From an uncultured Kiloniellales bacterium (lineage in GTDB: Bacteria; Pseudomonadota; Alphaproteobacteria; Kiloniellales; JAKSDN01): a stretch of 64,000 nucleotides of DNA. Below the pieces are notes generated by a model. It was not told the DNA's origin and searched no databases. It was given only the letters and a program-made list of their open reading frames with translations. Position 1 is the stretch's first letter; every line of letters starts with the position of its first letter. The stretch covers positions 27,150-91,149 of the forward strand of contig CAMYKD010000018.1 of the NCBI GenBank assembly GCA_947258885.1. Reading direction: 5' to 3'. This document shows positions 469-18,109 of this stretch, piece after piece. The translations under genes and the position numbers were made by a program.

Positions 469-688
469 CAGGATTGGGGCAGAAAGCGCGAATTTCTGCA
501 AATTTATCAACGAACTGTCCGTTAACCATATAGCGGCTTGATCTCGGAAAAGGATTCTCGATCCGGGGTTATTTGGTTAAGCCTGATGCTTAATTTGTGC
601 GAAAGAGTTTTGCTGTATTCCTATGAACGGTGCGCGCGGGGATCGCCTCCCCGCTTTGGTCCGCCGCAACGAGAGAGCAGAGAGCCTC

Positions 689-3166
689 ATGGCCGACTCC
701 TTGAAAATCTGCGTAGTGGATGACGACCGCGACGTCGCAGAGGGTTTGGCCGAAATTCTCCAAATGGTCGGCCACCAGGTGCAGACCGTCTTCGCAGGCC
801 CGGATGCCCTGCGCGTCCTGGGCCAAGAAGATTTCGATATCGCCTTCATCAATGCCGAGTTGCCCGATCTGACCGACCTCGAGAGCTTCATGGAGGTCCG
901 CAAGATCAATCCCGGCATGAAGACTGTCATGATGACCGGCTACACCATCGAGCAGTTGCTCAGGCAGGCGGTGGGCAGCGGATCGGTGAACGTGCTGCAA
1001 AAACCCGTCACGATGGACGAGGTGGTGCGGGCCTTGGACGTGGCCAAGCCCAAGGGCATCGTCCTGGTTGCCGAGGACGACCCCGAGATCAGCGACAAGA
1101 TTCGAAATACCTTGGTTCTGCAGGAGTATCGGGTCAGGGTCGCCCATACGACCGGAGAAGCGCTGGATGCGGTTGGCGCCGGTGACTGCGACATCCTGGT
1201 TCTCGACCTACGTCGCCCCGTCATCGACGCATTGGAAGTCTATATCGAACTCGAGAAACAGGACCTGGGCCTGCCCACGATCGTGATCAGCACCCATCCG
1301 GACAAGCAAGCCGGTCCGATCGACGTACTGCGCGACCAGACCGTCACGGGGATACTGATCAAGCCCTTCGATCCGGCGCGATTGCTTGCGGCCCTGGAGA
1401 AGACGCACAAGAAAGGTGCTCCTGCCCCGGTCGAAGAAGAACCGCAAGAAGCAGATCGGGCCGAGGCCCGGGGCGGCCGTATCCTGGTCATCGATGACGA
1501 TCGGGACGTGGCCGAGGGTATGGCCGACGTTCTCACCGACATGGGTCATACCGTCGAGATCGCGCTTACCGGCAGCAAGGCCCTGGAGATCGCCGAACGG
1601 TTCGACGCGCAAATCGCGCTCGTCGATATCAAGCTGGGACGGACCAGCGGCCTCGAACTGATAGCCTCCCTGGAGAAGCTGCGCCCGGGCATCGTCAACG
1701 TCGTGATCACCGCCAACGCCGGCAAGGAATCCGTCATCGCGTCTATGCGCAGCGGGGCTTTCGACTTTCTCAACAAACCCACGCATCCACGGGATCTTTT
1801 CGCGGTGCTCGACCGCTGCTTCGAGAAGATAGACACGCAGAAGAATCAGACACGGAACGTACCCGCCGACGAGCCTTCGCCCGACCTTCGCGCCAGCGTG
1901 GGTCATGAACTCCGCGACCCGCTAAACGCGGTCATCGGATTCTCCGAGATCCTGGGCGACGAGATGCTGGGGCCGCTTGGCTCCGAGCAGTATGTGCACT
2001 ACGCCAAGGGCATCAACGAGGCCGGTCAGCATCTGACCACAGTCATCGACGACCTGTTCGAGGACAGCCAGGCGGAGTCCGGCATGATAGAATCGGGCGA
2101 ACCCCAGCCCGAGGCGCCCAGTTCAGAAGAAGCGGAACCGAAGCAGAGCGAGTCGGGCCAAACCGTCGAAGAAATATCGAACGAATTCGAGCCGGACGAT
2201 CCGGATCTCACCGAAACCACGGTAGAAGAACAGGAGGCGTTCGACCTCGGCCAGTCGGAAACCTTCGAGGCCCTTGCCGATGAGTCGGCGGCAGACGAAA
2301 CGGAGAACGTCGAGCCGCACACTTACGAGCCGCAATCGAGCGAACTAGAGCCGGACATGCCGGAATTCCGCGACCCCTTCGGCAATGAAGAAGAGGCCCA
2401 CTCGGCGGACTCCGGCGGACAAGACTATATCGCAGCCATGGCTGAAGACCCGGCGGCGGCCGAGACGGATACGGCCGAGTCCACTGCATCCGGTTCGGGC
2501 TCGAACGAACTCTATTCCGACCGGCCGGATATTGCTGCGCTCTTCGCCGAAGACCCGGAAGCACGCGAAGCGGACCCCGGACCGGCCGGACCTAATGGGC
2601 CGGAACCGGATGTGGCCCAGCCAGACCCGTTGGATCCGCAATTCCAGGATCCGGATCTATCGGGAATTTCAGCCGACGAGCCGTGGCAGGTGACAGAGGA
2701 CCTGGACAACCTGTTGTCCGGCGCGCTCGACTCCCTGGAACCGGACGTTCAGGACCCGGCCCTGAACGACCCGAACTGGGCCGAACCGTACGCCCCTGAA
2801 GTCGAACAGGCCGACCCGGAGTGGAGCGAACCGGAGCCATATGCGCCCCGGGACGACGCGGTCGGCCAGGACGCGCCGCTTGCAGACCAATCGGAAACAT
2901 ACGATGCGCCCGCCTCAGAACCGGACCCGGCTGAGCCCGAGGTCCATGATCCCGGCCCGAGCGAAGCCGCGTGGGACGAACCCGCGACGGATCGCCCAGA
3001 GATGCAGGGTCCAGTCCTCGACGAGTCCGGCGCACACGACGGGGACGGGAACGAGGACGAGGAAGACAAGGAAGACGAGGACAACGAGGAAGGCGACCGG
3101 AACGAGATCCAGAACGGCAACGGTCGCAAGATCCTGAAATTCGGGCCCTTCAAGAAAGTCATCTGA
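689..3166 (+). CDS. atypical multi-receiver protein: REC(pseudo)-REC-REC-HisKA/DHp without ATPase domain, plus ~370-aa Asp/Glu/Pro-rich tail
   Basis: ORF 623-3166. ATG 689 is preferred because it lies 5 aa before the first receiver. Three CheY-like receivers start at ICVVDDDRDV, IVLVAEDDPEI and ILVIDDDRDV. REC1 has Asn at the acceptor position (FDIAFINAELPD); REC2 and REC3 keep Asp (ILVLDLRRP, IALVDIKLG). An H-box (SVGHELRDPLNAVIGFSEIL) follows, but I see no N/G1/G2 ATPase boxes. The tail is extremely acidic and ends in basic RKILKFGPFKKVI. Confidence 0.85.
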   Translation: MADSLKICVVDDDRDVAEGLAEILQMVGHQVQTVFAGPDALRVLGQEDFDIAFINAELPDLTDLESFMEVRKINPGMKTVMMTGYTIEQLLRQAVGSGSVNVLQKPVTMDEVVRALDVAKPKGIVLVAEDDPEISDKIRNTLVLQEYRVRVAHTTGEALDAVGAGDCDILVLDLRRPVIDALEVYIELEKQDLGLPTIVISTHPDKQAGPIDVLRDQTVTGILIKPFDPARLLAALEKTHKKGAPAPVEEEPQEADRAEARGGRILVIDDDRDVAEGMADVLTDMGHTVEIALTGSKALEIAERFDAQIALVDIKLGRTSGLELIASLEKLRPGIVNVVITANAGKESVIASMRSGAFDFLNKPTHPRDLFAVLDRCFEKIDTQKNQTRNVPADEPSPDLRASVGHELRDPLNAVIGFSEILGDEMLGPLGSEQYVHYAKGINEAGQHLTTVIDDLFEDSQAESGMIESGEPQPEAPSSEEAEPKQSESGQTVEEISNEFEPDDPDLTETTVEEQEAFDLGQSETFEALADESAADETENVEPHTYEPQSSELEPDMPEFRDPFGNEEEAHSADSGGQDYIAAMAEDPAAAETDTAESTASGSGSNELYSDRPDIAALFAEDPEAREADPGPAGPNGPEPDVAQPDPLDPQFQDPDLSGISADEPWQVTEDLDNLLSGALDSLEPDVQDPALNDPNWAEPYAPEVEQADPEWSEPEPYAPRDDAVGQDAPLADQSETYDAPASEPDPAEPEVHDPGPSEAAWDEPATDRPEMQGPVLDESGAHDGDGNEDEEDKEDEDNEEGDRNEIQNGNGRKILKFGPFKKVI

Positions 3167-3271: not shown

Positions 3272-5749
3272 GTGACCGCGCTATCCGCATTACCGGAGAA
3301 ACACCTCCCTCTGCCCCACCGCTTCGCCGAATGGTTCGCGGCGAAGGGCTGGCAACCCCACGCGCATCAGCTCGATATGCTGGCGGCGGCGGACTCGGGC
3401 AGGTCCGCGTTGCTGATCGCGCCGACCGGCGGCGGCAAGACCTTGGCCGGTTTCCTGCCCGCCCTGATCGACTTGGCGGAAAGCCCGCGCGACGGACTGC
3501 ACACGCTCTACGTCTCGCCCTTGAAGGCACTCGCCGTCGACATCCACCGCAACCTGACGCGGCCGATCCAGGAGCTGGGCCTCGACATTGACTGCGAGAC
3601 GCGCACCGGCGATACGCCCCAGGCCAAGCGCCAGCGCCAGCGTCGCCGCCCTCCACAACTTCTGCTGACCACGCCGGAATCGCTCGCCCTCCTGCTCTCC
3701 TACCACGACGCGCCGCAGGTGTTCGCAGGCCTGAACTCGGTGGTGGTCGACGAGTTGCATGCGCTGGCCGACAACAAGCGCGGCGATCTGCTGGCGCTCG
3801 GTCTGGCCCGCCTGCAAGGCTTGGCGCCCGGCTGCCGCCGGGTCGGCCTCTCGGCCACGGTGCACGACCCGCAGGCGCTGGTCGCCTGGCTCTCGCCGAC
3901 GGGGCGCCATGAGGACGCACCGCTCCGCCTGATCCAGGCCGGCGGGGGCGCCGCGCCCGAGGTCGAGATCCTGGGGACTCGCGCCCATCTGCCCTGGTCC
4001 GGACACATGGCGGTCCATGCCCTCGCCGAGGTCTTCGAGCGCATCCGCGCGGCACGCACCACGCTCGTCTTCGTCAACACCCGCGCCCAGGCTGAGATCG
4101 TGTTCCGCGAGCTGTGGCGGCTCAACGAGGAGGGCCTCGCGATCGCGCTGCACCACGGCAGCCTCTCGGCCGAACAGCGGCGCAAGGTCGAGGCGGCCAT
4201 GGCGCGCGGCGAGCTGCGCGCGGTGGTCGCGACCTCCTCGCTCGATCTCGGGGTCGACTGGGCGGCGGTCGATCTGGTGGTGCAGGTCGGCGCGCCCAAG
4301 GGCGTCTCGCGCCTGCTTCAACGCATCGGCCGGGCCAACCACCGCCTCGACCGGCCGAGCCGGGCGCTGCTCGTTCCGGCCAACCGCTTCGAGGTGCTGG
4401 AATGCCGTGCCGCGCTGGACGGCCTGCGCGCCGGCACCCTGGACGGCGACCCGGCCAAACCCGGCGGCCTCGACGTGCTGGCCCAGCACATCCTCGGCAC
4501 CGCCTGCTCCGGGCCCTTCGATGCCGAGACCCTCTACGCCGAGGTGACGCGCGCCGCGCCCTACGCCGCGCTCCCGCGCCCGGACTTCGACGACGTGCTG
4601 GCCTTCGTCGCCGACGGCGGCTACGCGCTCGGCGGTTACGAACGCTACCGGCGGCTCGGGCGAGACCGCGAAGGACGCTACCGGGTCGCCTCGCCGGCCC
4701 ATCTGCGCCGCTACCGCATGAACGTCGGCACGATCGTCGAAGCGCCGACGGTCCGGGTGAAGCTGAAGCGCGGCCGCATGCTGGGCGAGGTCGAAGAGCA
4801 CTTCGTCCGGGGCTTGGTCCCCGGCGACAGCTTCGTCTTCGCCGGCGAGCTCCTGACCTTCGAAGGCCTGCGCGAGACCTGGGCCGAGGTCATCCGCGGC
4901 CCTGCCGGCGGCGAACCCAAGGTGCCGGCCTACGCGGGAGGCCGCTTGCCGCTCTCGACCCACCTGGCCGAGCGCGTGCGCGCCATGCTCGAAGCCCCGG
5001 GACGTTGGCGTGACCTGCCGGCGAACGTCGCCGATTGGCTGTTCATGCAACGCCGGCGCTCGATCCTACCGCCGGTTGAAGGCCTGCTGGTCGAAACCTT
5101 CCCGCGCGGCCAAAAGCAGTTCCTGGTCGCCTACTGCTTCGAGGGGCGCAACGCGCACCAAACCCTCGGCATGCTGCTGACCCGGCGCATGGAGCGCGCG
5201 GGCCTGGGGCCGCTGGGCTTCGTCGCCACCGACTACGTGCTCGCGGTGTGGAGCCTCGAGCCCGTGACCGACGCGGCCGCGCTGCTCGACCAGGACATGC
5301 TGGGCGACGACCTGGAAGAATGGATGGCGGACTCCTCCATGCTGCGCCGGACCTTCCGCCAGGTCGCGGTGATCGCCGGCTTGATCGAGCGGCGCTATCC
5401 CGGCCGGGAAAAGAGCGGCCGTCAGGTCACCGTCAGCGCCGATTTGATCTACGACGTGCTGCGCAAGTACGAGCCGGACCACGTGCTGCTGCGCGCGACC
5501 CGGGCCGACGCCGCGGGCGGCCTGACCGACATCGGCCGCCTGGCCGGGCTGCTGGCCCGCGTCCAGGGTCGCATAACGCATCGCGCTCTGCCCCGGGTCT
5601 CGCCGCTCGCCGTGCCGGTCCTGCTCGAGATCGGCAAGGAACAGGTCACTGGCGCCGCGCTCGACGAATTGCTCGACGAAAGCGCGCGGGCGCTGATCGA
5701 GGAGGCCACGGGTAGGCTGCAGGTGATACAGGCGGAGCTGCCGCTGTGA
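3272..5749 (+). CDS. Lhr-like DEXH-box helicase (ligase-associated DNA damage response type)
   Basis: 825-aa ORF with GTG start. Helicase motifs present: APTGGGKT (Walker A), VVVDELHAL (DEXH), LSATV, QRIGRANH (motif VI), followed by a long Lhr-type C-terminal region. The stop overlaps the pdeM start (GTGA). Confidence 0.9.
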   Translation: MTALSALPEKHLPLPHRFAEWFAAKGWQPHAHQLDMLAAADSGRSALLIAPTGGGKTLAGFLPALIDLAESPRDGLHTLYVSPLKALAVDIHRNLTRPIQELGLDIDCETRTGDTPQAKRQRQRRRPPQLLLTTPESLALLLSYHDAPQVFAGLNSVVVDELHALADNKRGDLLALGLARLQGLAPGCRRVGLSATVHDPQALVAWLSPTGRHEDAPLRLIQAGGGAAPEVEILGTRAHLPWSGHMAVHALAEVFERIRAARTTLVFVNTRAQAEIVFRELWRLNEEGLAIALHHGSLSAEQRRKVEAAMARGELRAVVATSSLDLGVDWAAVDLVVQVGAPKGVSRLLQRIGRANHRLDRPSRALLVPANRFEVLECRAALDGLRAGTLDGDPAKPGGLDVLAQHILGTACSGPFDAETLYAEVTRAAPYAALPRPDFDDVLAFVADGGYALGGYERYRRLGRDREGRYRVASPAHLRRYRMNVGTIVEAPTVRVKLKRGRMLGEVEEHFVRGLVPGDSFVFAGELLTFEGLRETWAEVIRGPAGGEPKVPAYAGGRLPLSTHLAERVRAMLEAPGRWRDLPANVADWLFMQRRRSILPPVEGLLVETFPRGQKQFLVAYCFEGRNAHQTLGMLLTRRMERAGLGPLGFVATDYVLAVWSLEPVTDAAALLDQDMLGDDLEEWMADSSMLRRTFRQVAVIAGLIERRYPGREKSGRQVTVSADLIYDVLRKYEPDHVLLRATRADAAGGLTDIGRLAGLLARVQGRITHRALPRVSPLAVPVLLEIGKEQVTGAALDELLDESARALIEEATGRLQVIQAELPL

Positions 5750-6429
5750 GACGCGGTTCCGAGGTCCTGGTCAACGGCGTGGAGCTGCTGGCCGACGTTT
5801 CAGGAGCGCTCTACTGGCCGGCGCTGCGCACGCTGGTGGTCGCGGATCTGCATCTGGAGAAGGGCTCGGCATTCGCGGCACGAGGACAGCTGCTGCCGCC
5901 CTACGACAGCGCCGCGACGCTGCAGGCCCTGGCCGAGGTTATCGTCCGTCGCGATCCCGAGCGGGTCATCTGCCTGGGCGACAGCTTCCACGACGACGGC
6001 GCGGCCGGGCGCTTGGCGTCCGCCGACGGCGCGGCGTTGCGCCGCCTGACCGCCGCCCACGACTGGATCTGGATCGCGGGCAATCACGACCCTGTCCCCC
6101 CGGTCGCTTGGGGCGGGAAGGTCGAAACCCGGGTCACGCTGGGCGCGCTCGCATTCCGGCATCGGGCCGGCGGCGACCGCGCACCCGGGGAGATTTCGGG
6201 CCACTACCACCCCACGGCCTCGGTGCGCACGCGCGCCAGGCGGATCACTGGGCGCTGTTTCGTGGGCGACGGCAGGCGCCTGATTCTGCCCGCCTTCGGC
6301 GCCTACACCGGCGGCCTCGACGTGCTCGACCCGGCCATCGCCGGGCTTTTTCCGCGCGGCTTTTCGGTCCACCTGCTCGGCCGCGGCGCGGTCCACAGCT
6401 TCTCCGGGACGGCATTGGCGGCCGGATAG
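5746..6429 (+). CDS. pdeM: ligase-associated DNA damage response endonuclease PdeM (metallophosphoesterase)
   Basis: 227 aa. Calcineurin-like phosphoesterase motifs: VVADLHLEKG, CLGDSFHD, GNHDP, GHYHP. Translationally coupled to the upstream Lhr-like helicase. Confidence 0.85.
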   Translation: MRRGSEVLVNGVELLADVSGALYWPALRTLVVADLHLEKGSAFAARGQLLPPYDSAATLQALAEVIVRRDPERVICLGDSFHDDGAAGRLASADGAALRRLTAAHDWIWIAGNHDPVPPVAWGGKVETRVTLGALAFRHRAGGDRAPGEISGHYHPTASVRTRARRITGRCFVGDGRRLILPAFGAYTGGLDVLDPAIAGLFPRGFSVHLLGRGAVHSFSGTALAAG

Positions 6430-6683
6430 GTCCTGCGGGCCGGCGGCGACCCGTGGATCAGGAAGCCGATCGTCGGCGCGGGATTGCGGGTCGGTGCCAC
6501 CCATCACCGCTCATACCGGGGGCTCATGGGAAGTCAACAGATCGACCGGATCTGTGGCTGGGCCTGCGAGCACGCACCCTGAAACGAGATCTTTCGTTAT
6601 AGTTGCTTTCTTTTCAAGGATATTCTCCCTTCTCAACGTTCTGGGCCAGCCCCGTCAGGCAGTGCGGGCAATGATCTTTTTCG

Positions 6684-6708
6684 GGAAGAAATCGCCGGAC
6701 CGGGTGTT
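6684..6708 (+). promoter_or_regulatory. ECF-type promoter candidate upstream of G/S-rich gene 1
   Basis: GGAAG-AAATCGCCGGACCGGG-TGTT (GGAAG, N16, TGTT), ending 43 nt before ATG 6752. The same architecture recurs at 9664-9688(-), 9778-9802(+) and 11392-11416(+). The 16-nt block CGGGAAGAAATCGCCG is identical to the one at 11390-11405. Confidence 0.6.
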
Positions 6709-6751: not shown

Positions 6752-7048
6752 ATGAAAAACAAAACCATAGCCGATGAAGCCGTCGAGACGAACGTCGACC
6801 TGGACCGGCGGCGAGCCCTTGCCCGTCTCGGGCTCGGTCTTTCGGCCGCCTACGCGGTCCCGGCCCTACTGACCTTGAGCCGCGGCGCCCACGCCTCGAG
6901 CGGCGATGGCGGCTCTGGCGGCTCGGGTGGCTCCGGCGGCGATAGCGGCTCCGGCGGCAGCGCCTCTGGCGCCAGCGTCAGCGGTCCGAGCAGCGACGAT
7001 CCGGCGGTCGTGTCGGACGGTAGCAGCGGCCCGTCCGTCGATCCCTAG
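6752..7048 (+). CDS. small Gly/Ser/Asp-rich protein 1 with conserved twin-Arg leader (candidate secreted protein or modified-peptide precursor)
   Basis: 98 aa: MKNKTIADEAVETNVDLDRRRALARLGLGLSAAYAVPALLTLSRGAHA|SSGDGGSGGSGGSGGDSGSGGSASGASVSGPSSDDPAVVSDGSSGPSVDP. It has a Tat-like RR n-region, an h-region and an AxA site. The core has no Lys, Arg or aromatic residues. Paralogous to the ORFs at 9890 and 11473. Confidence 0.75.
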   Translation: MKNKTIADEAVETNVDLDRRRALARLGLGLSAAYAVPALLTLSRGAHASSGDGGSGGSGGSGGDSGSGGSASGASVSGPSSDDPAVVSDGSSGPSVDP

Positions 7049-7065
7049 CCCTAGACAACTTTCAT

Positions 7066-7092
7066 CCGCCGGGCCCTTTACGGGCCCGGCGG
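7066..7092 (+). terminator. strong GC hairpin between G/S-rich gene 1 and the kinase-RRE gene (terminator/attenuator candidate)
   Basis: CCGCCGGGCCC-TTTAC-GGGCCCGGCGG forms an 11-bp perfect stem 18 nt after stop 7048. It is followed by GCTCTTTGT, which is only a weak U-tract. Confidence 0.5.
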
Positions 7093-7155
7093 GCTCTTTG
7101 TAGGATCCCCGACAGAGCGTGAGTCGAACAACGGCGTCGAGCCGGACGAGGCGCT

Positions 7156-8382
7156 GTGCCTGATAGATTGCTTCTCGAATTCGAAGGTCTGAGCCACCGG
7201 ATCGCCCTGCTGGACTGCCGCGAGGTCTATGCCTGCTTTCCGGGGGTGTTCCGCGGCTGGAAGATCCATGAAGCCGGAACCGCCGACCAACCCCCGATCC
7301 TGACCCTCGCGGGCTCTGGCGAAGGCTATACCCTGGAAACCCCCTGGCTCGACCAGCCGCTGGTGCGCCGCGACAAGATCGACGCGCTCTGCGGCTTCAT
7401 CGCCGAGTTCATCCGGGCCTATGTCAACGACGACCAGCGGCTGCTCTGCCTGCACGGCGCGGCAGCCGAGTTCGCCGGCAAACTCGTGGTCTTTCCGAAC
7501 CGCTACCGGGCCGGCAAGAGCGTGCTCTCCGCCTGCCTGGCGGCGGCCGGGGTGCGCCTCTTCGCCGACGACGTGCTGCCGATCGGCGGGCCGGACGACC
7601 TCGGCATGGCGCCGGGCATCGTGCCGCGTCTGCGGCTGCCGCTGCCGGACAACCTGACTCCGGCAACAAGGGACTTCCTGGAGGCCCGCCGGGGACCGAG
7701 CGGCAAGCGTTATCTCTACCTGGACTTGGCCGCGGCGGAACTCGCCAGCTACGGCACGCTGGCGCCCATCGGCGGTTTCGTGCTGCTCGAGCGGGAAGCG
7801 GGGGCGGATCTCGATCTCGCGCCGGTCGACCCGGGCGAGATGCTGCGCCAAGTGATCTGGCAGAACTTCGCCCGCGAGACCCCGGCGCCCGAGATCCTGC
7901 GGCGCCTGGAGCGCATCGTCGGTCGCGCCCGCTGCCTTCGCCTGCGCTACGACCGGGCGGACGAGGCCGTGGCCCTGCTCAAGGAAACATTCGCGAGCTG
8001 GCCCGCGGCCGCGGAGGATCCCGAAGGAGCGGTTCAGGATGCACATGGCCCGGGGCCGTCCGCGCCGACAGGGAACGTCCCGACCGGTTGCTATCTGCGC
8101 AATCCGGACATTACCGAAACGAAGGTGGGGGTGGAACACTTCCTGGCCGACTCGAAGGGCGCGGCGATCCACAACCTCAACGCCGTCGGCTCTGCGCTCT
8201 GGCAGCTCATGGCCGAGCCCAGGACCATCGATGAGCTGGTCGACCCGCTGCACGCCGCCTTTCCCGAGGTCGCTCGCACGCAGATCGAGCAGGACGTGCG
8301 CGCACTGCTCAAGGGTCTCATCGCCAAGCGGCTCGTGATGGCGGGATCCGAGGACATCCGGGGGCGCCAGAGCGCCTCGTGA
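7156..8382 (+). CDS. HprK-like serine kinase domain fused to C-terminal PqqD-family (RiPP recognition element-like) domain
   Basis: 408 aa, GTG start. The N-terminal ~300 aa carry HPr kinase C-domain-like motifs: LCLHGAAAEFAGKLVVF, the P-loop-like RYRAGKSVLSACL, and VRLFADDVLPI. The C-terminal ~90 aa are PqqD-like: AAIHNLNAVGSALWQLMAEPRTIDELVDPLHAAFPEVARTQIEQDVRALLKGLIAKRLV. Confidence 0.75.
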   Translation: MPDRLLLEFEGLSHRIALLDCREVYACFPGVFRGWKIHEAGTADQPPILTLAGSGEGYTLETPWLDQPLVRRDKIDALCGFIAEFIRAYVNDDQRLLCLHGAAAEFAGKLVVFPNRYRAGKSVLSACLAAAGVRLFADDVLPIGGPDDLGMAPGIVPRLRLPLPDNLTPATRDFLEARRGPSGKRYLYLDLAAAELASYGTLAPIGGFVLLEREAGADLDLAPVDPGEMLRQVIWQNFARETPAPEILRRLERIVGRARCLRLRYDRADEAVALLKETFASWPAAAEDPEGAVQDAHGPGPSAPTGNVPTGCYLRNPDITETKVGVEHFLADSKGAAIHNLNAVGSALWQLMAEPRTIDELVDPLHAAFPEVARTQIEQDVRALLKGLIAKRLVMAGSEDIRGRQSAS

Positions 8383-8403: not shown

Positions 8404-9048
8404 CTAGCTGTCGCTGATCAGAACCAACCGCGTCTTCCACTGGCCCTCGGGCGCGCGGCAGGCGATGGCGCGGCGAATCTCCGATTTGCCGTCCAGCGCC
8501 TCCAACGCGGTGTATTCCCGGCACCACTGGCCGCCTCTGTTCTTGAAGGTGCGCACCGGCGTAATCTCGCCGGTCTTGCCGCTGTCCGGATTGCGCCAGG
8601 CAGCGGCCTCGCCGCTCACATTTTTCTCCAAGGCCTGGGTTAACGCCGCTTCCCTGACCCGCTGATCCGCCTGCCCGACGGCGTGGAGCCGGGCGATCTC
8701 CTGCTCGACCCGGTAGTCGACCAACAGGAACCCGCCGCCCAGCCCGACGATCAGCATGGCAAGCGACGCGGCAAGCGCAACGGGCCAAGGACTGCGCCAG
8801 GGACCGCTGCGGCTCGCCCGCTCGGCGGACGTTGCCTGGATCGCCTGGAGGACGCGGGCCGGAACCGGCGCGTTCAACGGTTCGTTGAAGGCCGAGCGCA
8901 ACAGCTCGGCGCTCTCGCGCAGCCGGCGGACGGTTTCGCGGGCTTCGGAATCCCCGGCAAGCGCCGCTTCCACGCGCGCAGTCTCGCTCTGGTCGAGTTG
9001 TCCGTCTACGTAGGCGACCAAGAATTCCGGATCGATAAATTGGGTCAT
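8404..9048 (-). CDS. anti-sigma factor, single TM, periplasmic surface-antigen-like Cys-pair domain
   Basis: Start at MTQFIDPEFLVAYVDGQLDQSETARVEAALAGDSEARETV, an anti-sigma N-terminal helix-type sequence. ATG 9048 lies 4 nt after the sigma stop. TM segment: WPVALAASLAMLIVGLGGGFLLV. C-terminal domain: W.NPDSGKTGEITPVRTFKNRGGQWCREY...ACRAPEGQW. Confidence 0.8.
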   Translation of the reverse strand: MTQFIDPEFLVAYVDGQLDQSETARVEAALAGDSEARETVRRLRESAELLRSAFNEPLNAPVPARVLQAIQATSAERASRSGPWRSPWPVALAASLAMLIVGLGGGFLLVDYRVEQEIARLHAVGQADQRVREAALTQALEKNVSGEAAAWRNPDSGKTGEITPVRTFKNRGGQWCREYTALEALDGKSEIRRAIACRAPEGQWKTRLVLISDS

Positions 9049-9052
9049 GACG

Positions 9053-9586
9053 TCACCTCGCCGGTTCCGGGGTCGGGGTCGGCTGTTCGCCGCCAACGAA
9101 GGCTTTCAGGGCCAGCCGCGCCCGGGCGAGGCGGCTGGTCACGGTGCCGATGGGCAGCTCCAGCATTTCCGAGACCTCCCGGTAGGACAGGCCCTCCACG
9201 GTAACAAGCAGCAGGATGGTCTTCTGCTCCTCGGGCAAGCGATCGACGAAACCGCGCACCGCCTCGAAGGTCATCTGCGCCTCGGCGGCCCGCACTCCGT
9301 CCACCGTGCCGTGCTCGACCGGGTCGATGCTGGCCAGGTGCTGGCCGCGCACGCCCTTGGCGCGCAGGTCGTTCAGATGGAGGTTGCGTGCGATGCGATA
9401 CATCCAACTGTCCAGCCGGGTCCCCGGTTGCCATTGATCGATGTGGCGGATCGCCCTTTCGCAGGTCGCCTGCAAAAGGTCGTCGCCGTCGTGCACAGAG
9501 CCGGTCAGGCCGTAGGCGAAGCGGCGCAGTCGGGGCAGAAACGCGAGCATTTCACGGCGAATCGTCTCGTCCAACTCTGATCGCAC
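9053..9586 (-). CDS. ECF (extracytoplasmic function) RNA polymerase sigma-70 family factor
   Basis: 177 aa. Region 2: DLLQATCERAIRHIDQWQPGTRLDSWMYRIARNLHLNDLRA. Region 4: LPEEQKTILLLVTVEGLSYREVSEMLELPIGTVTSRLARARLAL. GTG start at 9586; an alternative ATG lies at 9550. Confidence 0.9.
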   Translation of the reverse strand: MRSELDETIRREMLAFLPRLRRFAYGLTGSVHDGDDLLQATCERAIRHIDQWQPGTRLDSWMYRIARNLHLNDLRAKGVRGQHLASIDPVEHGTVDGVRAAEAQMTFEAVRGFVDRLPEEQKTILLLVTVEGLSYREVSEMLELPIGTVTSRLARARLALKAFVGGEQPTPTPEPAR

Positions 9587-9663: not shown

Positions 9664-9688
9664 AACACGCGAAATCGGGGTTTATTCC
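9664..9688 (-). promoter_or_regulatory. ECF-type promoter candidate upstream of the sigma gene (autoregulation)
   Basis: On the minus strand it reads GGAAT-AAACCCCGATTTCGCG-TGTT (N16). It lies 77 nt upstream of the sigma start at 9586. Confidence 0.55.
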
Positions 9689-9777
9689 CCCTGCACGACG
9701 CTATTACACTACTCAGTACCAGAGAAACCGACCTACGTTATGGTTAACGACCGTGTACGAAAAGACCCTTGGTCGGC

Positions 9778-9802
9778 GGAAGATTTCTTGCCCTGAGGTG
9801 TT
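9778..9802 (+). promoter_or_regulatory. ECF-type promoter candidate upstream of G/S-rich gene 2
   Basis: GGAAG-ATTTCTTGCCCTGAGG-TGTT (N16), 87 nt upstream of ATG 9890. It is divergent from the sigma-gene promoter candidate. Confidence 0.55.
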
Positions 9803-9889: not shown

Positions 9890-10432
9890 ATGTCGATCAA
9901 CCAGTTCCGGCGCAATCTTCGCCTACTCGCCTCGACCAGCGTCTTGGCCTGCGCGATTATTGGGGCGCCGGTCTCCGTACGGGTCCAGCTGGACGGCCCG
10001 GGTTGGCATTTCGAAGCGCCTCTGATCGGTTCCGGAGTTTTTCGTCATACCTCCGGCGAGAGCTTGGAGCCCGGCACCGCGGAGCTCGGTACCGACAGGA
10101 GCGCTGACGAAGCGCGGCGCAAGGCCCTGGCGCGCCTCGGCCTGGGTGAAGGCACACCCTATGAGCCTCCCGTATTGCTCACCCTGAGCCAGGCCCAGGC
10201 AGCGTCCGGCAGTGGCAGCGGTGGTGACAGCGGCGGTGATAGCGGTTCCTCAGGGGGCGACGACTCCGGTGGCAACAGCGGCCCCGGAGGGGCATCCGGC
10301 CCAAGCAGCGGCACATCGGGGACTTCCGGTACGGCCGGCGCGAGTGGCGGCAGCTTTGGCGACGTGGAGCAGGCAGGCCCCAGTCTCAGCCAGGATGAAG
10401 AGGCGACAGCGATCAGCACCGGTTGGCAGTGA
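9890..10432 (+). CDS. Gly/Ser-rich protein 2: own N-terminal signal, an internal copy of the conserved leader module, then a G/S-rich tail
   Basis: Preferred ATG 9890 (AGGAAG upstream). Signal: MSINQFRRNLRLLASTSVLACAIIGAPVS. After ~60 aa comes ...DEARRKALARLGLGEGTPYEPPVLLTLSQAQAASGSGSGGDSGGDSGSSGGDDSGGNSGPGG.... The track ORF starts at GTG 9824. Confidence 0.7.
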   Translation: MSINQFRRNLRLLASTSVLACAIIGAPVSVRVQLDGPGWHFEAPLIGSGVFRHTSGESLEPGTAELGTDRSADEARRKALARLGLGEGTPYEPPVLLTLSQAQAASGSGSGGDSGGDSGSSGGDDSGGNSGPGGASGPSSGTSGTSGTAGASGGSFGDVEQAGPSLSQDEEATAISTGWQ

Positions 10433-10812
10433 GTAGCCGCGTCCCGAATCCTTACTATGGACTGCCGTGGCTGGCAGCTTTCATGCTCGCGTCATGCACG
10501 GCGCAGGGTCCGGGATCATCCCAGGAGGCGGCGCGGGACACGTTCTACGATGGCTTGAGCACCGAGGAAATCGCGGTCGCGCAGCAGGCCGTCCAAGAGG
10601 CGCTCGAAAGCCGGCTGAGCAACGAGACGTCCCAGTGGACGTACCCAAACGGCAGCTCAGGCTCGGTCACGCCGCTCCGCACCTTCCGCACCAAGACGGG
10701 TCACTATTGCCGGGACTATGCCGAATCCCTCGCCAAGGGGTCTCAGCCGGGCTCCACCGTCAGGACGGCATGCCGCGGCAGCCAGGGTATATGGCGGGTG
10801 GTCAAGCGCTAA
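10423..10812 (+). CDS. lipoprotein with surface-antigen-like Cys-pair domain (paralog of the anti-sigma periplasmic domain)
   Basis: TTG 10423 (or GTG 10429) overlaps the end of the upstream gene. Lipobox: AAFMLASC. Domain: SQWTYPNGSSGSVTPLRTFRTKTGHYCRDY...ACRGSQGIW. It aligns position for position with the anti-sigma C-terminus. Confidence 0.7.
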   Translation: MAVSSRVPNPYYGLPWLAAFMLASCTAQGPGSSQEAARDTFYDGLSTEEIAVAQQAVQEALESRLSNETSQWTYPNGSSGSVTPLRTFRTKTGHYCRDYAESLAKGSQPGSTVRTACRGSQGIWRVVKR

Positions 10813-11319: not shown

Positions 11320-11391
11320 CGGCGGACTTACGGGTCTCGTCTACCGGTGGCCTTCCCGATCTCCCCGCACGAACTTTTCTTTCGCCGCGCG

Positions 11392-11416
11392 GGAAGAAAT
11401 CGCCGTTCGGCGTGTT
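11392..11416 (+). promoter_or_regulatory. ECF-type promoter candidate upstream of G/S-rich gene 3
   Basis: GGAAG-AAATCGCCGTTCGGCG-TGTT (N16), 56 nt upstream of ATG 11473. Confidence 0.6.
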
Positions 11417-11472: not shown

Positions 11473-11877
11473 ATGAGCAACAAAACCGAAGAGAAAGCGA
11501 CCGACGGGCTCACGGCCGAAATGAATCGCCGCAGGGCACTTGCCCGCATTGGCTTGGGCGTTTCCGTTGCCTATGCAGCACCGGTCCTGATGAACCTAAG
11601 CCAAGCGGCGGCGTCGTCCGGCAGCGGTTCGAGCGGACCGAGCGGCCACGGCGGGCCGGACGGCGACGAAGGGTCGAGCGGCCACAGCGGGCCGAGCGGC
11701 CACGGCGAGTCGAGCGGCGACGAAGGGTCGAGCGGCGACGAAGGGTCGAGCGGCCACAGCGGGCCGAGCGACTATAGCGAAGGGCCCAGCTCTCCCTCGG
11801 GACCGAGCGACTATAGCGAAGGGCCCACCTCTCCCTCGGGACCGAGCGACTATAGCGAAGGGCCCACCTATCGCTAA
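11473..11877 (+). CDS. small Gly/Ser/His/Asp-rich protein 3 with conserved twin-Arg leader and tandem SDYSEGP repeats
   Basis: 134 aa from ATG 11473 (GAGGAG upstream). Sequence: MSNKTEEKATDGLTAEMNRRRALARIGLGVSVAYAAPVLMNLSQAAA|SSGSGSSGPSGHGG...(SGPSDYSEGPxSP)x3...TYR. The N-terminus and leader are collinear with gene 1. Confidence 0.75.
   Translation: MSNKTEEKATDGLTAEMNRRRALARIGLGVSVAYAAPVLMNLSQAAASSGSGSSGPSGHGGPDGDEGSSGHSGPSGHGESSGDEGSSGDEGSSGHSGPSDYSEGPSSPSGPSDYSEGPTSPSGPSDYSEGPTYR
11761..11870 (+). repeat. 39-bp in-frame tandem repeat (~2.8 copies) inside G/S-rich gene 3
   Basis: GG(G/A)CCGAGCGACTATAGCGAAGGGCCCA(G/C)CTCTCCCTCG occurs at 11761, 11800 and, truncated, at 11839. GGCGACGAAGGGTCGAGC is also repeated three times between ~11663 and 11751. 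Confidence 0.9.
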
Positions 11878-16888: not shown

Positions 16889-18109
16889 ATGACGGGACCT
16901 TCGCGTTGGACACGAGCGCCCACTTGGTTTGCAATCCTTTTGGTGGCGGTCGCTCTCTCGGCCTGCATCACGGTCGTCGAGCAACAGCGGCCCTACGTGC
17001 AGCCCCAGCCCCAGGTGCCTCTGGTACCGTCGATCGAGGGCCTGGCGTTGGACCGCGCCCGGGCAGAGCTCGAGCACGCCGGCTACCGGCTGGGCCACGT
17101 GGCCAAGGAGAGGGACCGCTACGCTCCGCCACGATCGGTTCTCTGGCAAGACCCGGAACCCTATACACGGGCGCCCAGGGGCAGCCGTGTGGACGTCGTT
17201 ATCGCAGCGCGCGCCCTGCCCGATGCCGCCCCGCCGCCGGACCTGACCTCGGTTCCGGAGCTTCACGGCCTCAGGCTCAAGAAGGTCCGGCGTGAACTCA
17301 GGCGCGCCGACCTTCGCCTTGGCGAGGTCACCGAACGCTTTACCAACCGCGCGCCCGCAGGCACCGTTATCCGGCAGCGTCCCTCCGCGACGCGTCGGGT
17401 AGAGCCCGGCAGCACCGTCAACATAGTGATCGCCCGGGCCGAGGCCAACCAGCCGGTCGCCGGGGCCAAAGTGCCGAAACTGCGCGGCCTGCCCCTCCAA
17501 AAGGCCCGCGCCAGACTGGACCAGGCGCAGCTTCGCCTGGGTCAGGTCACGGAAAGGGCCGATAACAACGCCCGCAGGGGAACCGTGATCGGCCAGCAGC
17601 CCGCGCCGCGGACCCAGGTCCGGCCCGGCACCGCGGTCGACCTGGTGATCGCCGGACGGCAGCCGAACCAGCCGGTCGCCGGGGCTAAAGTGCCGAAACT
17701 GCGCGGCCTTTCCCTCAAGCAGGCCGGCGCCAGGCTAAAGCAGGCGCAGCTCCGACTGGGCCAAGTGACAGAGAAGGCCGATGGCAACGCCCGCAGGGGA
17801 ACCGTGATCGGCCAAGAACCCGCGCCGAAGCGGCAGGTCAAGCCCGGCACGGCAGTCGATGTCGTGGTCGCCGGCGCCAGTCAGGAACAGCAGCCCAATG
17901 CGGTCGAAGTTCCCGACCTGGTCGGCAAGAATGTCAGAATCGTCGGCGCCTTGCTCGAGCGCTCAGGTCTGAAACTCGGCACGATACGCAAGGAGAAGGA
18001 GGGCAACGGCAAGCGCAACACGGTGCTCGTGCAGACGCCGCAGCCCGGCACGATGGTCCGACCGGGCACCGCCGTGGATCTGGTCGTCCTGAGAACGCGA
18101 GACAAGTGA
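16889..18109 (+). CDS. lipoprotein composed of five PASTA domains
   Basis: 406 aa. Lipobox: LLVAVALSAC. It contains five ~70-aa repeats of the PASTA pattern (VP.L.GL.L..A...L..A.L.LG.V.......GTVI.Q.P...T.V.PGT.VDLVIA). No kinase or transpeptidase domain is attached. Confidence 0.8.
   Translation: MTGPSRWTRAPTWFAILLVAVALSACITVVEQQRPYVQPQPQVPLVPSIEGLALDRARAELEHAGYRLGHVAKERDRYAPPRSVLWQDPEPYTRAPRGSRVDVVIAARALPDAAPPPDLTSVPELHGLRLKKVRRELRRADLRLGEVTERFTNRAPAGTVIRQRPSATRRVEPGSTVNIVIARAEANQPVAGAKVPKLRGLPLQKARARLDQAQLRLGQVTERADNNARRGTVIGQQPAPRTQVRPGTAVDLVIAGRQPNQPVAGAKVPKLRGLSLKQAGARLKQAQLRLGQVTEKADGNARRGTVIGQEPAPKRQVKPGTAVDVVVAGASQEQQPNAVEVPDLVGKNVRIVGALLERSGLKLGTIRKEKEGNGKRNTVLVQTPQPGTMVRPGTAVDLVVLRTRDK
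17447..17884 (+). repeat. 219-bp in-frame tandem duplication (PASTA repeats 3 and 4)
   Basis: AACCAGCCGGTCGCCGGGGC(C/T)AAAGTGCCGAAACTGCGCGGCCT... recurs at 17447 and 17666. Nucleotide identity is high across the unit. Confidence 0.85.

Follow-up and report, generated by a model that had tools for sequence, protein, structure and literature searches.

The subject of this analysis is a 64,000-nucleotide (nt) stretch of DNA from an uncultured Kiloniellales bacterium (GenBank assembly GCA_947258885.1, contig CAMYKD010000018.1, positions 27,150 to 91,149), referred to below as the window. The open reading frame (ORF) at positions 7156 to 8382 of its forward strand encodes a kinase-like enzyme with a peptide-docking domain attached to it. 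A small ORF for a Ser-rich protein with a conserved leader lies upstream on the same strand, at 6752 to 7048. Precursor and enzyme constitute a minimal two-gene cassette across the Proteobacteria, resembling those that produce RiPPs (peptides that are ribosomally synthesized and then modified posttranslationally). An initial annotation of the window, made without database searches, had pointed out the fusion and the Ser-rich ORF beside it and had interpreted them as a kinase and its candidate substrate. The observation was confirmed and the interpretation is supported, as none of the in silico checks that we ran on the fold, the P-loop, and the docking domain contradicted it. The pairing of enzyme and substrate is now better supported than that annotation could know, by the conservation of the neighboring gene, by an invariant YxxPxL motif in the leader, and by the lack of any other conserved modifying enzyme.

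The fusion gene and the small ORF are conserved as a pair

We scanned one genome for each GTDB species and obtained 54 loci with the fusion gene. The carriers belong to the Rhodospirillales/Kiloniellales, the Dongiaceae, Afifella, the Xanthobacteraceae, Mesorhizobium, many Gammaproteobacteria, one Betaproteobacterium, and the Desulfobacterales. All are metagenome-assembled genomes (MAGs) except Mesorhizobium sp. KR9-304; the window itself shares about 89% identity with a Rhodospirillales MAG. A small ORF with the leader pattern stands beside the fusion gene in 44 of the 54, upstream on the same strand in 43 cases and divergent in 1. Eight of the 10 exceptions have no upstream sequence or have it masked, and several of these keep a fragment of a Gly/Ser/Thr-rich tail. 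Among the exceptions, locus L059 has only 354 nt upstream, ending in a repeat tail, and locus L014 has a tail remnant only.

The other neighbors change. On the contigs around six homologues of diverse lineage, all neighboring genes differ save for a small ORF 60 to 300 nt upstream on the same strand. All-against-all clustering of the ORFs from 66 loci gave no other universally conserved neighbor, and no other modifying enzyme (lyase, nucleotidyltransferase, or glycosyltransferase) was conserved with the pair in these loci. The 64-kb window has neither a second kinase nor a second RiPP recognition element (RRE), the type of docking domain found here. The order of the genes is also preserved in the one unfused locus examined (P0200), in which a small low-complexity ORF is followed by a 293-amino-acid (aa) kinase and a discrete 104-aa PqqD protein.

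Because it is GC rich and repetitive, the small ORF is often called in the wrong frame. In loci L007 (5490 to 5873), L011 (5436 to 5870), and L010 (5746 to 5841), the metagenome gene callers either misframed the Gly/Ser repeat, yielding Ala/Val/Gln-rich "proteins," or truncated it. Since gene callers misframe or cut these repeats, public protein sets systematically lack the precursors or contain them in wrong form. Some precursors are interrupted or incomplete in the assembled sequence: that of L036 (about 4593 to 4910) has an in-frame stop inside the repeat, and the remnant in L014 lies upstream of position 5001. Either repeat collapse during assembly or genuine decay could account for these two.

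The N-terminal domain is related to HPr kinase and phosphoenolpyruvate carboxykinase

The enzyme ORF has a GTG start, which agrees with the N termini of its homologues, and encodes 408 aa. An AlphaFold2 model based on an alignment of 30 homologues (predicted local distance difference test [pLDDT] score, 86.5; predicted template modeling score, 0.82) has two domains joined by a disordered linker. The first, residues 1 to 285 (7156 to 8010), is an HprK/PEPCK-like P-loop phosphotransferase domain according to NCBIfam, alignments, the model, and Foldseek. The linker, residues 286 to 304 (8011 to 8067), has pLDDT values below 50 and varies in length among the homologues. The PqqD-like RRE occupies residues ~305 to 398 and, with a short C-terminal tail and the stop codon, extends from 8068 to 8382. 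In the NCBI database the closest protein is labeled merely "PqqD family protein."

The initial annotation had proposed an HPr-kinase-like domain and had named a nonkinase fold as the finding that would count against it. Foldseek matched the N-terminal part to ATP-dependent phosphoenolpyruvate carboxykinase (PEPCK; E ~ 7e-6) and to HPr kinase/phosphorylase (HprK/P; E ~ 4e-4) in the PDB; identity to these fold relatives is only 9 to 21%. PEPCK and HprK/P have one common P-loop phosphotransferase fold. By sequence, the NCBIfam search gave a local match of residues 93 to 140 to TIGR04352 (HprK_rel_A) at 40.7 bits. Pfam gave nothing for the N-terminal 295 aa even at E values up to 10, PF07475 (Hpr_kinase_C) included, and sequence and profile searches of the PDB returned RREs only and no kinase structures.

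Both motifs named by the initial annotation, RYRAGKS and ADD, are present in the protein. The P-loop spans N115 and RYRAGKS (residues 116 to 122), with G-K-S at 7513 to 7521; the acidic pair D138-D139 (7567 to 7572) belongs to an ADD motif at residues 137 to 139; and alignment also identified H100 and the motif P157-RLRLPLP-164. The order of these motifs, LHG … GKS … DD, we take to be that of HprK/P. In 30 homologues at 47 to 89% identity, H100, G101, G120-K121-S122, D138-D139, R158, R160, and P162 are invariant. When the N-terminal domain was searched exhaustively with phmmer, a set of 1.84 billion cluster representatives (clustered at 50% identity) yielded 1,066 clusters at E values of 1e-3 or less and 321 at 1e-30 or less. 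We aligned the window protein with 136 of the best 150 matches (at least 270 aa; 33 to 77% identity). Among these 137 sequences G120 is kept in all; K121, D138, D139, and R160 in 136 each; H100 in 135; and R158 and S122 in 134 each, with Thr replacing S122 in 2 more. The motifs are thus near invariant, and the P-loop is not degenerate in the relatives, a doubt that the initial annotation had raised. The fold match and the retention of GKS and DD in at least 134 of the 137 sequences identify the domain as a P-loop phosphotransferase.

That kinase and RRE form one polypeptide is true of the window ORF but is not a rule of the family. Among the 136 representatives of at least 270 aa, 102 are fused (at least 370 aa) and 28 have only 270 to 320 aa, so about a fifth of the relatives are unfused; fusion is common but not obligatory. 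Ten unfused relatives scored 34 to 57 bits against TIGR04352, some of them aligning to positions 90 to 278 of the model, which has 280. These scores make the kinase family a sister of HprK_rel_A and not a member of it.

The RRE keeps the residues with which LppB contacts its leader

The C-terminal domain, which the initial annotation had read as PqqD/RRE, is a lasso-type RRE. Pfam PqqD (PF05402) matches residues 327 to 394 (8134 to 8337) with an E value of 9.7e-14 and 51.9 bits, against a cutoff of 23.4. The best NCBIfam matches are lasso-type PqqD chaperones. By sequence, this part matches the solved RREs TbiB1 and LppB, and a family profile matched TbiB1 (1.6e-9), LppB (4.5e-8), PbaB1 (5.5e-6), and TfuB1 (9e-5). 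Foldseek superposed it on TbiB1 with a template modeling score of 0.85 to 0.88 and a root mean square deviation of 1.4 to 2.1 Å, and it has the winged-helix fold and three-stranded sheet of a PqqD/RRE domain.

How such a domain reads its leader has been described for LppB. The leaders of lasso peptides and of the linear polyphosphorylated peptides (LPP) of the Bacillota have a common [Y/W]xxPx[L/V] motif that is seated in the RRE cleft; the hydroxyl of the leader Tyr is hydrogen bonded to D70 of LppB, N33 fixes the kink at the Pro, and Y-to-A and P-to-A substitutions in the leader lower binding to the RRE (PMC13381572). We transferred the LppB residues to the window protein with a HMMER alignment to LppB chain 9x8z_B and took their conservation from the 30-homologue alignment. 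The counterparts of N33 (N342), L32 (L341), D70 (D380), M78 (L388), and L83 (L393) are invariant, and those of F74 (L384), Y60 (F369), and I56 (L365) are nearly so. The RRE therefore retains the residues with which LppB contacts the Tyr and the Pro. Together with the invariant YxxPxL of the leader, these conserved pocket residues give indirect support to the prediction that the RRE binds the leader of the neighboring ORF.

The small proteins have one leader and diverse Ser-rich cores

The initial annotation had spoken of a Ser-rich small ORF next to the enzyme gene and of three candidate substrates. These correspond to three ORFs with a common leader, all on the forward strand, here called precursors A, B, and C. 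Precursor A (6752 to 7048; 98 aa) is the small ORF upstream of the enzyme gene, with homologous leader-bearing ORFs at the loci counted above. Its leader (residues 1 to 48; 6752 to 6895) comprises an acidic N-region, R19-R20-R21, ALARLGL, Y34-A-V-P37-A-L39, TLS, and A46-H-A48. The core (residues 49 to 98; 6896 to 7045) is Ser/Gly rich, disordered, and 34% Ser. Precursor C (11473 to 11877; 134 aa) has a ribosome-binding site and joins the common leader (RRRALARIGLGVSVAYAAPVLMNLSQAAA) to a tail of repeats rich in Ser, Gly, Pro, and Glu. Precursor B (9890 to 10432; 180 aa) has an N-terminal signal of its own (MSINQFRRNLRLLAS…); the leader motif is internal, beginning at 10115 (RRKALARLGLGEGTPYEPPVLLTLSQAQA), and after it come a Ser/Gly-rich stretch and, at the C terminus, a conserved motif (SQDEEATAISTGWQ).

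Alignment of 61 unique leader sequences gave the consensus of an acidic N-region, RR-x-A-L-x-R-L-G-L-x5-Y-x-x-P-x-L-x-T-L-S-x-A-x-A, and then the tail. The alignment was anchored at the twin arginine, which is present in all 61, and the search pattern restricted the first ten positions alone. At the unconstrained positions, Y15 and P18 are found in 61 of 61 sequences, L20 in 56, S24 in 54, L23 in 52, and T22 in 47. Counted back from the end of AxA, the spacing is Y-15/P-12/L-10; the paeninodin-type leader PbaA has the identical register (W-15/P-12/L-10), and LppA has a similar one (Y-16/P-13/V-11). In precursor B the hydrophobic region contains Glu residues, and YxxPxL is nonetheless retained (GTPYEPPVLLTLS). 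Such a segment is unfit as the core of a signal peptide, and the retention of the motif in it speaks for recognition of YxxPxL by a protein and not by the export machinery alone.

The tails, 30 to 160 aa long, are of low complexity and otherwise unrelated: (GGS)n, (SEP)n, (SEASM)n, or (PSx)n, with GR repeats in the Desulfobacterales. What they have in common is Ser, at 12 to 48% in nearly all of them; a few Ser-poor ones have Thr instead. Among 68 sequences, 61 have a Ser within the first four core residues after AxA, and the core typically begins S-S-G, S-G-G, or G-S-G. In LPP, the primary modification is the phosphorylation of Ser3 in a linear core by the HprK-like kinase LppK together with the RRE LppB (PMC13381572).

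Precursors of the B type form a second class, with a C-terminal (S/P)x(D/E)EEAAxIxxGW(Q) motif, found at 9890 to 10432 of the window and in L012 (7953 to 8297), L028 (3485 to 3862), L034 (3275 to 3610), and L062 (112 to 498). The C-terminal …DEEAxAIxxGWQ motif of precursor B itself recurs in L012, L013, L028, L034, and L062. The position of the leader motif behind a separate N-terminal signal is a trait of the window's clade. B-type precursors co-occur with an extracytoplasmic function (ECF) sigma factor, an anti-sigma factor, and a lipoprotein, the latter two bearing a 17kDa_Anti_2 domain, and may be ligands of the anti-sigma sensor domain.

The leader resembles an export signal

The leader has the anatomy of a twin-arginine translocation (Tat) signal: by inspection, RR followed by a hydrophobic pair, a hydrophobic h-region, and AxA. 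RR-x-A-L is invariant. The 17 residues after it are uncharged in 60 of the 68 sequences, with a mean Kyte-Doolittle value of 1.64, and the terminal AxA is often directly preceded by a basic residue. Export is predicted for these proteins, probably by Tat and possibly by Sec. The Tat system tolerates unstructured hydrophilic cargo of 100 to 120 aa unless a hydrophobic stretch is present (PMC6708511).

A profile of the leader retrieved about 50 further small proteins of 62 to 72 aa. Some of them belong to the cassette itself: in Aquamicrobium (P0125) the gene order is ECF sigma factor, anti-sigma factor, S8 peptidase, precursor, and a 420-aa PqqD fusion. The leader is also found on larger proteins. 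In the Hyphomicrobiales, subtilisin-like S8 peptidases in L049 (1574 to 2815) and L066 (4607 to 5902) have an RR…YxxPxL leader followed by a Ser/Arg-rich linker, and their genes lie directly upstream of a 65- to 90-aa precursor and the kinase-RRE gene; these peptidases may be exported processing proteases. Two small peptides, P0131 (L071, 6001 to 6204) and P0150 (L069, 6001 to 6213), are 67 to 70 aa long and combine a closely related leader, RRxALxKLGLAAxxAYxAPxxxH[LI]DRxAxA, with Cys-containing or basic cores. Their genes are conserved beside MmcB-like and HldE genes, and no RRE or kinase was found within 6 kb of them.

Intergenic hairpins and probable ECF regulation

Between the precursor A stop and the enzyme start, at 7065 to 7103 on the forward strand, lies a terminator- or attenuator-like hairpin with a 12-bp stem (11 G-C pairs) and a 5-nt loop, followed by CTCTTTGTAG, a T-rich stretch. 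No other hairpin in the region comes close to it in strength. Folding of the intergenic segment between precursor and enzyme gave z scores below -2 in 32 of 46 loci, and inspection by eye found long, perfect hairpins in nearly all, several with clear U-tracts and all unrelated in sequence. In other RiPP operons an abundant precursor transcript is accompanied by partial read-through into the enzyme gene. The hairpin at 7065 to 7103 would fit such a layout, by analogy.

Genes for regulation lie just downstream. An anti-sigma factor of 214 aa is encoded at 8404 to 9048 on the reverse strand, with a zf-HC2/RseA-like N terminus, one inferred transmembrane segment, and a C-terminal 17kDa_Anti_2 domain; it co-occurs with the cassette in 16 loci of Alphaproteobacteria and Desulfobacterales. 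Next to it, also on the reverse strand, is a 177-aa ECF sigma-70 family factor (9053 to 9586; Pfam and NCBIfam). The domain search also identified a putative lipoprotein with 17kDa_Anti_2 on the forward strand (10423 to 10812), the start codon of which is uncertain.

An ECF-type promoter-like motif, GGGAAKAAAYCSC-N7-SGTGTT (GGAA[G/T]AAA…[C/G]GTGTT), has exactly three matches in the 64 kb: upstream of precursor A (6683 to 6708, forward; GGGAAGAAATCGCCGGACCGGGTGTT), upstream of the ECF sigma gene (9664 to 9689, reverse; GGGAATAAACCCCGATTTCGCGTGTT), and upstream of precursor C (11391 to 11416, forward). With three mismatches allowed, the 64 kb had no further site (about 0.1 expected). A weaker copy precedes precursor B (9778 to 9802, forward; GGAAGATTTCTTGCCCTGAGGTGTT) and has an equivalent in L031 and L034. 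Related motifs precede sigma and precursor genes in those two loci and, as a variant, in L049. The motif before the ECF sigma gene is consistent with autoregulation, and the set of sites suggests that the leader-bearing precursors are the regulon of the adjacent ECF sigma factor in this lineage. A scan for sigma-70 promoters between 6400 and 12000 found none, and Rfam at its gathering thresholds gave no match in the window.

ECF sigma factor, anti-sigma factor, 17kDa_Anti_2 lipoprotein, and B-type precursors were found in 13 to 16 of the 66 loci, in rearranged order, in Alphaproteobacteria and Desulfobacterales; the gammaproteobacterial loci have no ECF module. We therefore rejected the module as an obligatory part of the cassette. 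It is accessory regulation outside the core.

Proposed mechanism and alternatives

We propose that the YxxPxL of the leader enters the C-terminal PqqD-type RRE of the enzyme and docks there as a beta-strand. With the precursor so held, the P-loop domain would move phosphate from ATP (or possibly pyrophosphate [PPi]) to Ser, sometimes Thr, in the core. The serines close to the leader-core junction would be the best-placed acceptors, by analogy and spacing, and further tail serines may be modified. The same leader would act as a Tat-type export signal ending at an AxA signal peptidase site, so that the phosphorylated, polyanionic product would be exported, probably by Tat, and the leader cut off at AxA by the housekeeping signal peptidase. 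Reliance on housekeeping export and signal peptidase would account for the lack of genes for a dedicated protease or transporter. The intergenic hairpin would hold precursor transcripts above enzyme transcripts, and the adjacent ECF sigma/anti-sigma pair would, in this organism, activate the three precursor genes and the enzyme gene along with them. We hold this mechanism as a whole with moderate confidence. That an RRE-guided enzyme acts on the neighboring small protein we hold with greater confidence, and the export route and phosphorylation at multiple sites with less.

Several observations weigh against this mechanism. In the kinase-like domain the first Gly of the Walker A motif is Ser or Asn, and Pfam Hpr_kinase_C fails to match; we infer the kinase assignment from the fold, the motifs, and a subthreshold family match. 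In an AlphaFold2 model of a chimera of precursor A and the enzyme, made with the family alignment, the leader was undocked, but the whole precursor had low pLDDT values (27 to 46), so the model carries no information on docking. The leader also occurs on the S8 peptidases of L049 and L066, and leader-like sequences occur on the small Cys-containing peptides P0131 and P0150, which have no RRE or kinase nearby; the leader may thus be an export signal in the first place, which is the chief uncertainty in the docking interpretation. It probably serves export as well as docking. As for regulation, the promoter pattern was built from the three sites that it subsequently found, so what supports it independently is that it recurs in other lineages.

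The features of the leader might be explained if the fusion protein were an export-gating chaperone, its RRE binding the leader as the redox enzyme maturation proteins TorD and DmsD bind theirs, its P-loop NTPase timing release, and its cargo staying unphosphorylated. The leader has full signal peptide anatomy, its presence on an S8 peptidase with a globular domain suggests export targeting, proteins of the TorD/DmsD kind bind Tat signal peptides, and phosphotransfer is itself a prediction. We nevertheless consider such a chaperone unlikely. The fold family of HprK/P and PEPCK consists of substrate phosphotransferases and not of switch NTPases, the DD pair and the His show the conservation seen in HprK-type kinases, and the closest characterized pairs of RRE and HprK-like protein are true kinases. 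Gated export would also leave the abundance of Ser and Thr in unrelated tails unexplained.

The orphan peptides and the chimera without confident docking would equally be expected if the leader were a mere lineage-typical export signal and the small ORFs not substrates, the RRE binding some other peptide or acting in cis. This is quite improbable given the adjacency in 44 of 54 species from four proteobacterial classes while all other neighbors change. YxxPxL is invariant, even in precursor B, where it is internal and no longer hydrophobic, and the RRE residues that read the Tyr and the Pro are conserved with it; conservation of such strength is unusual for plain signal peptides.

The chemistry could be other than simple phosphorylation. 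HprK/P is bifunctional, being both kinase and phosphorylase, and can use PPi. The P-loop domain might carry out another group transfer or a two-step reaction at Ser, for example nucleotidylylation, PPi-dependent phosphorylation followed by elimination to dehydroalanine, or phosphorolysis, with no simple phosphopeptide as product. The LPP and paeninodin kinases put several phosphates on one Ser, and the kinases of lanthipeptides phosphorylate Ser/Thr in preparation for elimination (PMC10604976). We give these chemistries little credence, as the pair has no conserved lyase, nucleotidyltransferase, or glycosyltransferase beside it and O-phosphorylation is the simplest chemistry for this fold.

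It is very improbable that the small ORFs are GC-rich, low-complexity artifacts and that the fusion acts on an unlinked target, for instance on the ECF sigma/anti-sigma pair as its regulatory kinase: gene callers do often pick other frames in the repeats, and ECF modules are nearby in some lineages, but the leader is conserved at the protein level and in frame with the Ser-rich reading across classes, precursor A has a 3' hairpin, precursor C has a ribosome-binding site, a promoter-like motif precedes all three precursors, and the ECF module is present in only 13 to 16 of 66 loci whereas the small ORF is nearly universal.

RRE-guided phosphorylation of the neighboring protein might be part of something larger. 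A tentative extension, possible but speculative, is a proteobacterial pathway of secreted phosphoproteins, in which a leader-guided kinase in the cytoplasm would hyperphosphorylate long, disordered, Ser-rich chains and the RRE would proofread the Tat signal as a chaperone and hold the cargo back from export until it is modified. The resulting polyanionic phosphoserine polymers of the periplasm or the extracellular space would be akin in function to phosvitin, osteopontin, or phosphophoryn, binding metals or controlling mineral formation under an envelope-sensing ECF sigma factor.

Comparison with described systems

The closest described system is LPP, reported to be restricted to the Bacillota and consisting of the precursor LppA, the HprK-like kinase LppK, and LppB as a discrete RRE (Popov et al., Nat Commun 2026, PMC13381572). 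The cassette has in common with it the combination of kinase, RRE, and YxxP leader, at the level of fold and motif and not from direct comparison of the kinase sequences. Both have an HprK-like kinase and a lasso-type RRE as the only core-modifying machinery and a linear, noncyclized peptide; YxxPx[V/L] about 15 to 16 residues before the junction; an early core Ser available as acceptor; variable cores; and one to three precursors per locus. N33, D70, and other residues of the LppB pocket have conserved counterparts here as well. Unlike LPP, the cassette belongs to another phylum; its kinase and RRE are fused in most cases; the leader is Tat-like with AxA; the cores are 30- to 160-aa, Ser/Gly-rich, low-complexity sequences; some lineages have ECF sigma control; and the kinase is undetectable by Pfam and related only locally to TIGR04352. 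No SipW-like signal peptidase I (LppS), NTP-transferase, or MsbA-like exporter is among the window neighbors or recurs in the 66 loci. Lacking such a peptidase, transferase, and pump, and coming from a different phylum, the cassette is not a member of LPP.

With lasso peptides of the paeninodin type the cassette shares an HprK-like Ser kinase (there PadeK/ThcoK), a B1-type RRE, and the leader register W/Y-15, P-12, L-10. There the acceptor is a C-terminal Ser and the product is a lasso; here there is no macrolactam synthetase and no B2. In agreement with the initial annotation, Pfam and NCBIfam scans of the ORFs found no lasso cyclase and no B2 protease in the window, and a lasso cluster was rejected for want of a C or B2 gene among the neighboring ORFs.

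The HPr-rel-A system we take to comprise TIGR04352 (HprK_rel_A), TIGR04355 (HprK_rel_B), and a PqqD-family protein. It provides the nearest sequence family for the kinase domain, with a length of ~280 aa, the P-loop/DD block, and a PqqD-family partner. Unlike it, the cassette has no B-type kinase, its PqqD domain is fused, and its RRE resembles the lasso-type PqqD models and not a system-specific one. Whether the fusion belongs to HPr-rel-A had been left open by the initial annotation; we rejected membership because the 40.7 bits of the window protein, like the scores of the unfused relatives, are far from the curated cutoff of 200.

Bufferins offer an analogy for the leader. In both systems a general signal peptide serves, or would serve, as the leader, with cytoplasmic modification, housekeeping export, and some protein-sized substrates; a partner protein has been proposed to mask the signal peptide of bufferins until they are modified, and sigma/anti-sigma genes occur in bufferin clusters also (PMC12452194). 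Their chemistry and signal differ, being Cys oxidation by a multinuclear nonheme iron oxidase (MNIO) and a Sec-type signal with a DUF2063 partner, as opposed to presumed Ser phosphorylation with a PqqD fusion. Neither an MNIO (MbnB/DUF692) nor DUF2063 was found among the window neighbors by Pfam and NCBIfam, so bufferins are an analogy only.

HprK/P and PEPCK themselves have the P-loop phosphotransferase fold in common with the enzyme, and differ in that its presumed substrate is a leader-tagged, disordered peptide instead of HPr or oxaloacetate. In the literature that could be searched, no paper was found on HprK-related kinase, on kinase-RRE fusions, on Ser-rich precursors with HPr kinases, or on the cassette.

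Other genes in the window

Directly upstream of the cassette, at 3272 to 6429 on the forward strand, are genes for a ligase-associated DNA-damage-response helicase (TIGR04121, 1118 bits) and PdeM (TIGR04123). They were considered as parts of the system and rejected, being syntenic solely in close relatives. The cognate ligase and exonuclease were not seen beside them in the part examined. The forward-strand ORF at 623 to 3166 encodes an 847-aa protein with three receiver domains and HisKA; HATPase_c was not among its Pfam matches. At 16889 to 18109, also on the forward strand, five PASTA domains (Pfam E = 8e-64) make up most of a 406-aa ORF. Such an ORF is unusual in an alphaproteobacterial genome, as PASTA domains are typical of Gram-positive penicillin-binding proteins and PknB-type kinases.

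Significance

Phosphorylation as the class-defining modification of a RiPP was described only in 2026, and only in the Bacillota. The cassette would extend phosphorylated RiPPs to Gram-negative bacteria in a stripped-down form, with one enzyme and one substrate, and an export-signal-like leader would make a dedicated protease and pump unnecessary. The family is large (1,066 clusters; 54 GTDB species) and almost wholly uncultured, and it is annotated only as "PqqD family protein." With its substrates routinely misframed or missed, the system escapes both standard annotation and RiPP-mining programs. An RRE that acts on a signal peptide would also bear on how RiPP precursors with signal peptides escape premature export. 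Exported phosphoserine-rich polymers, if such are the products, would constitute a new kind of bacterial polyanion, extracellular or periplasmic, with possible relevance to metal homeostasis, interactions with sediment minerals, and envelope stress. A role in metal or mineral binding or in the envelope stress response is plausible for the organisms that carry the cassette.

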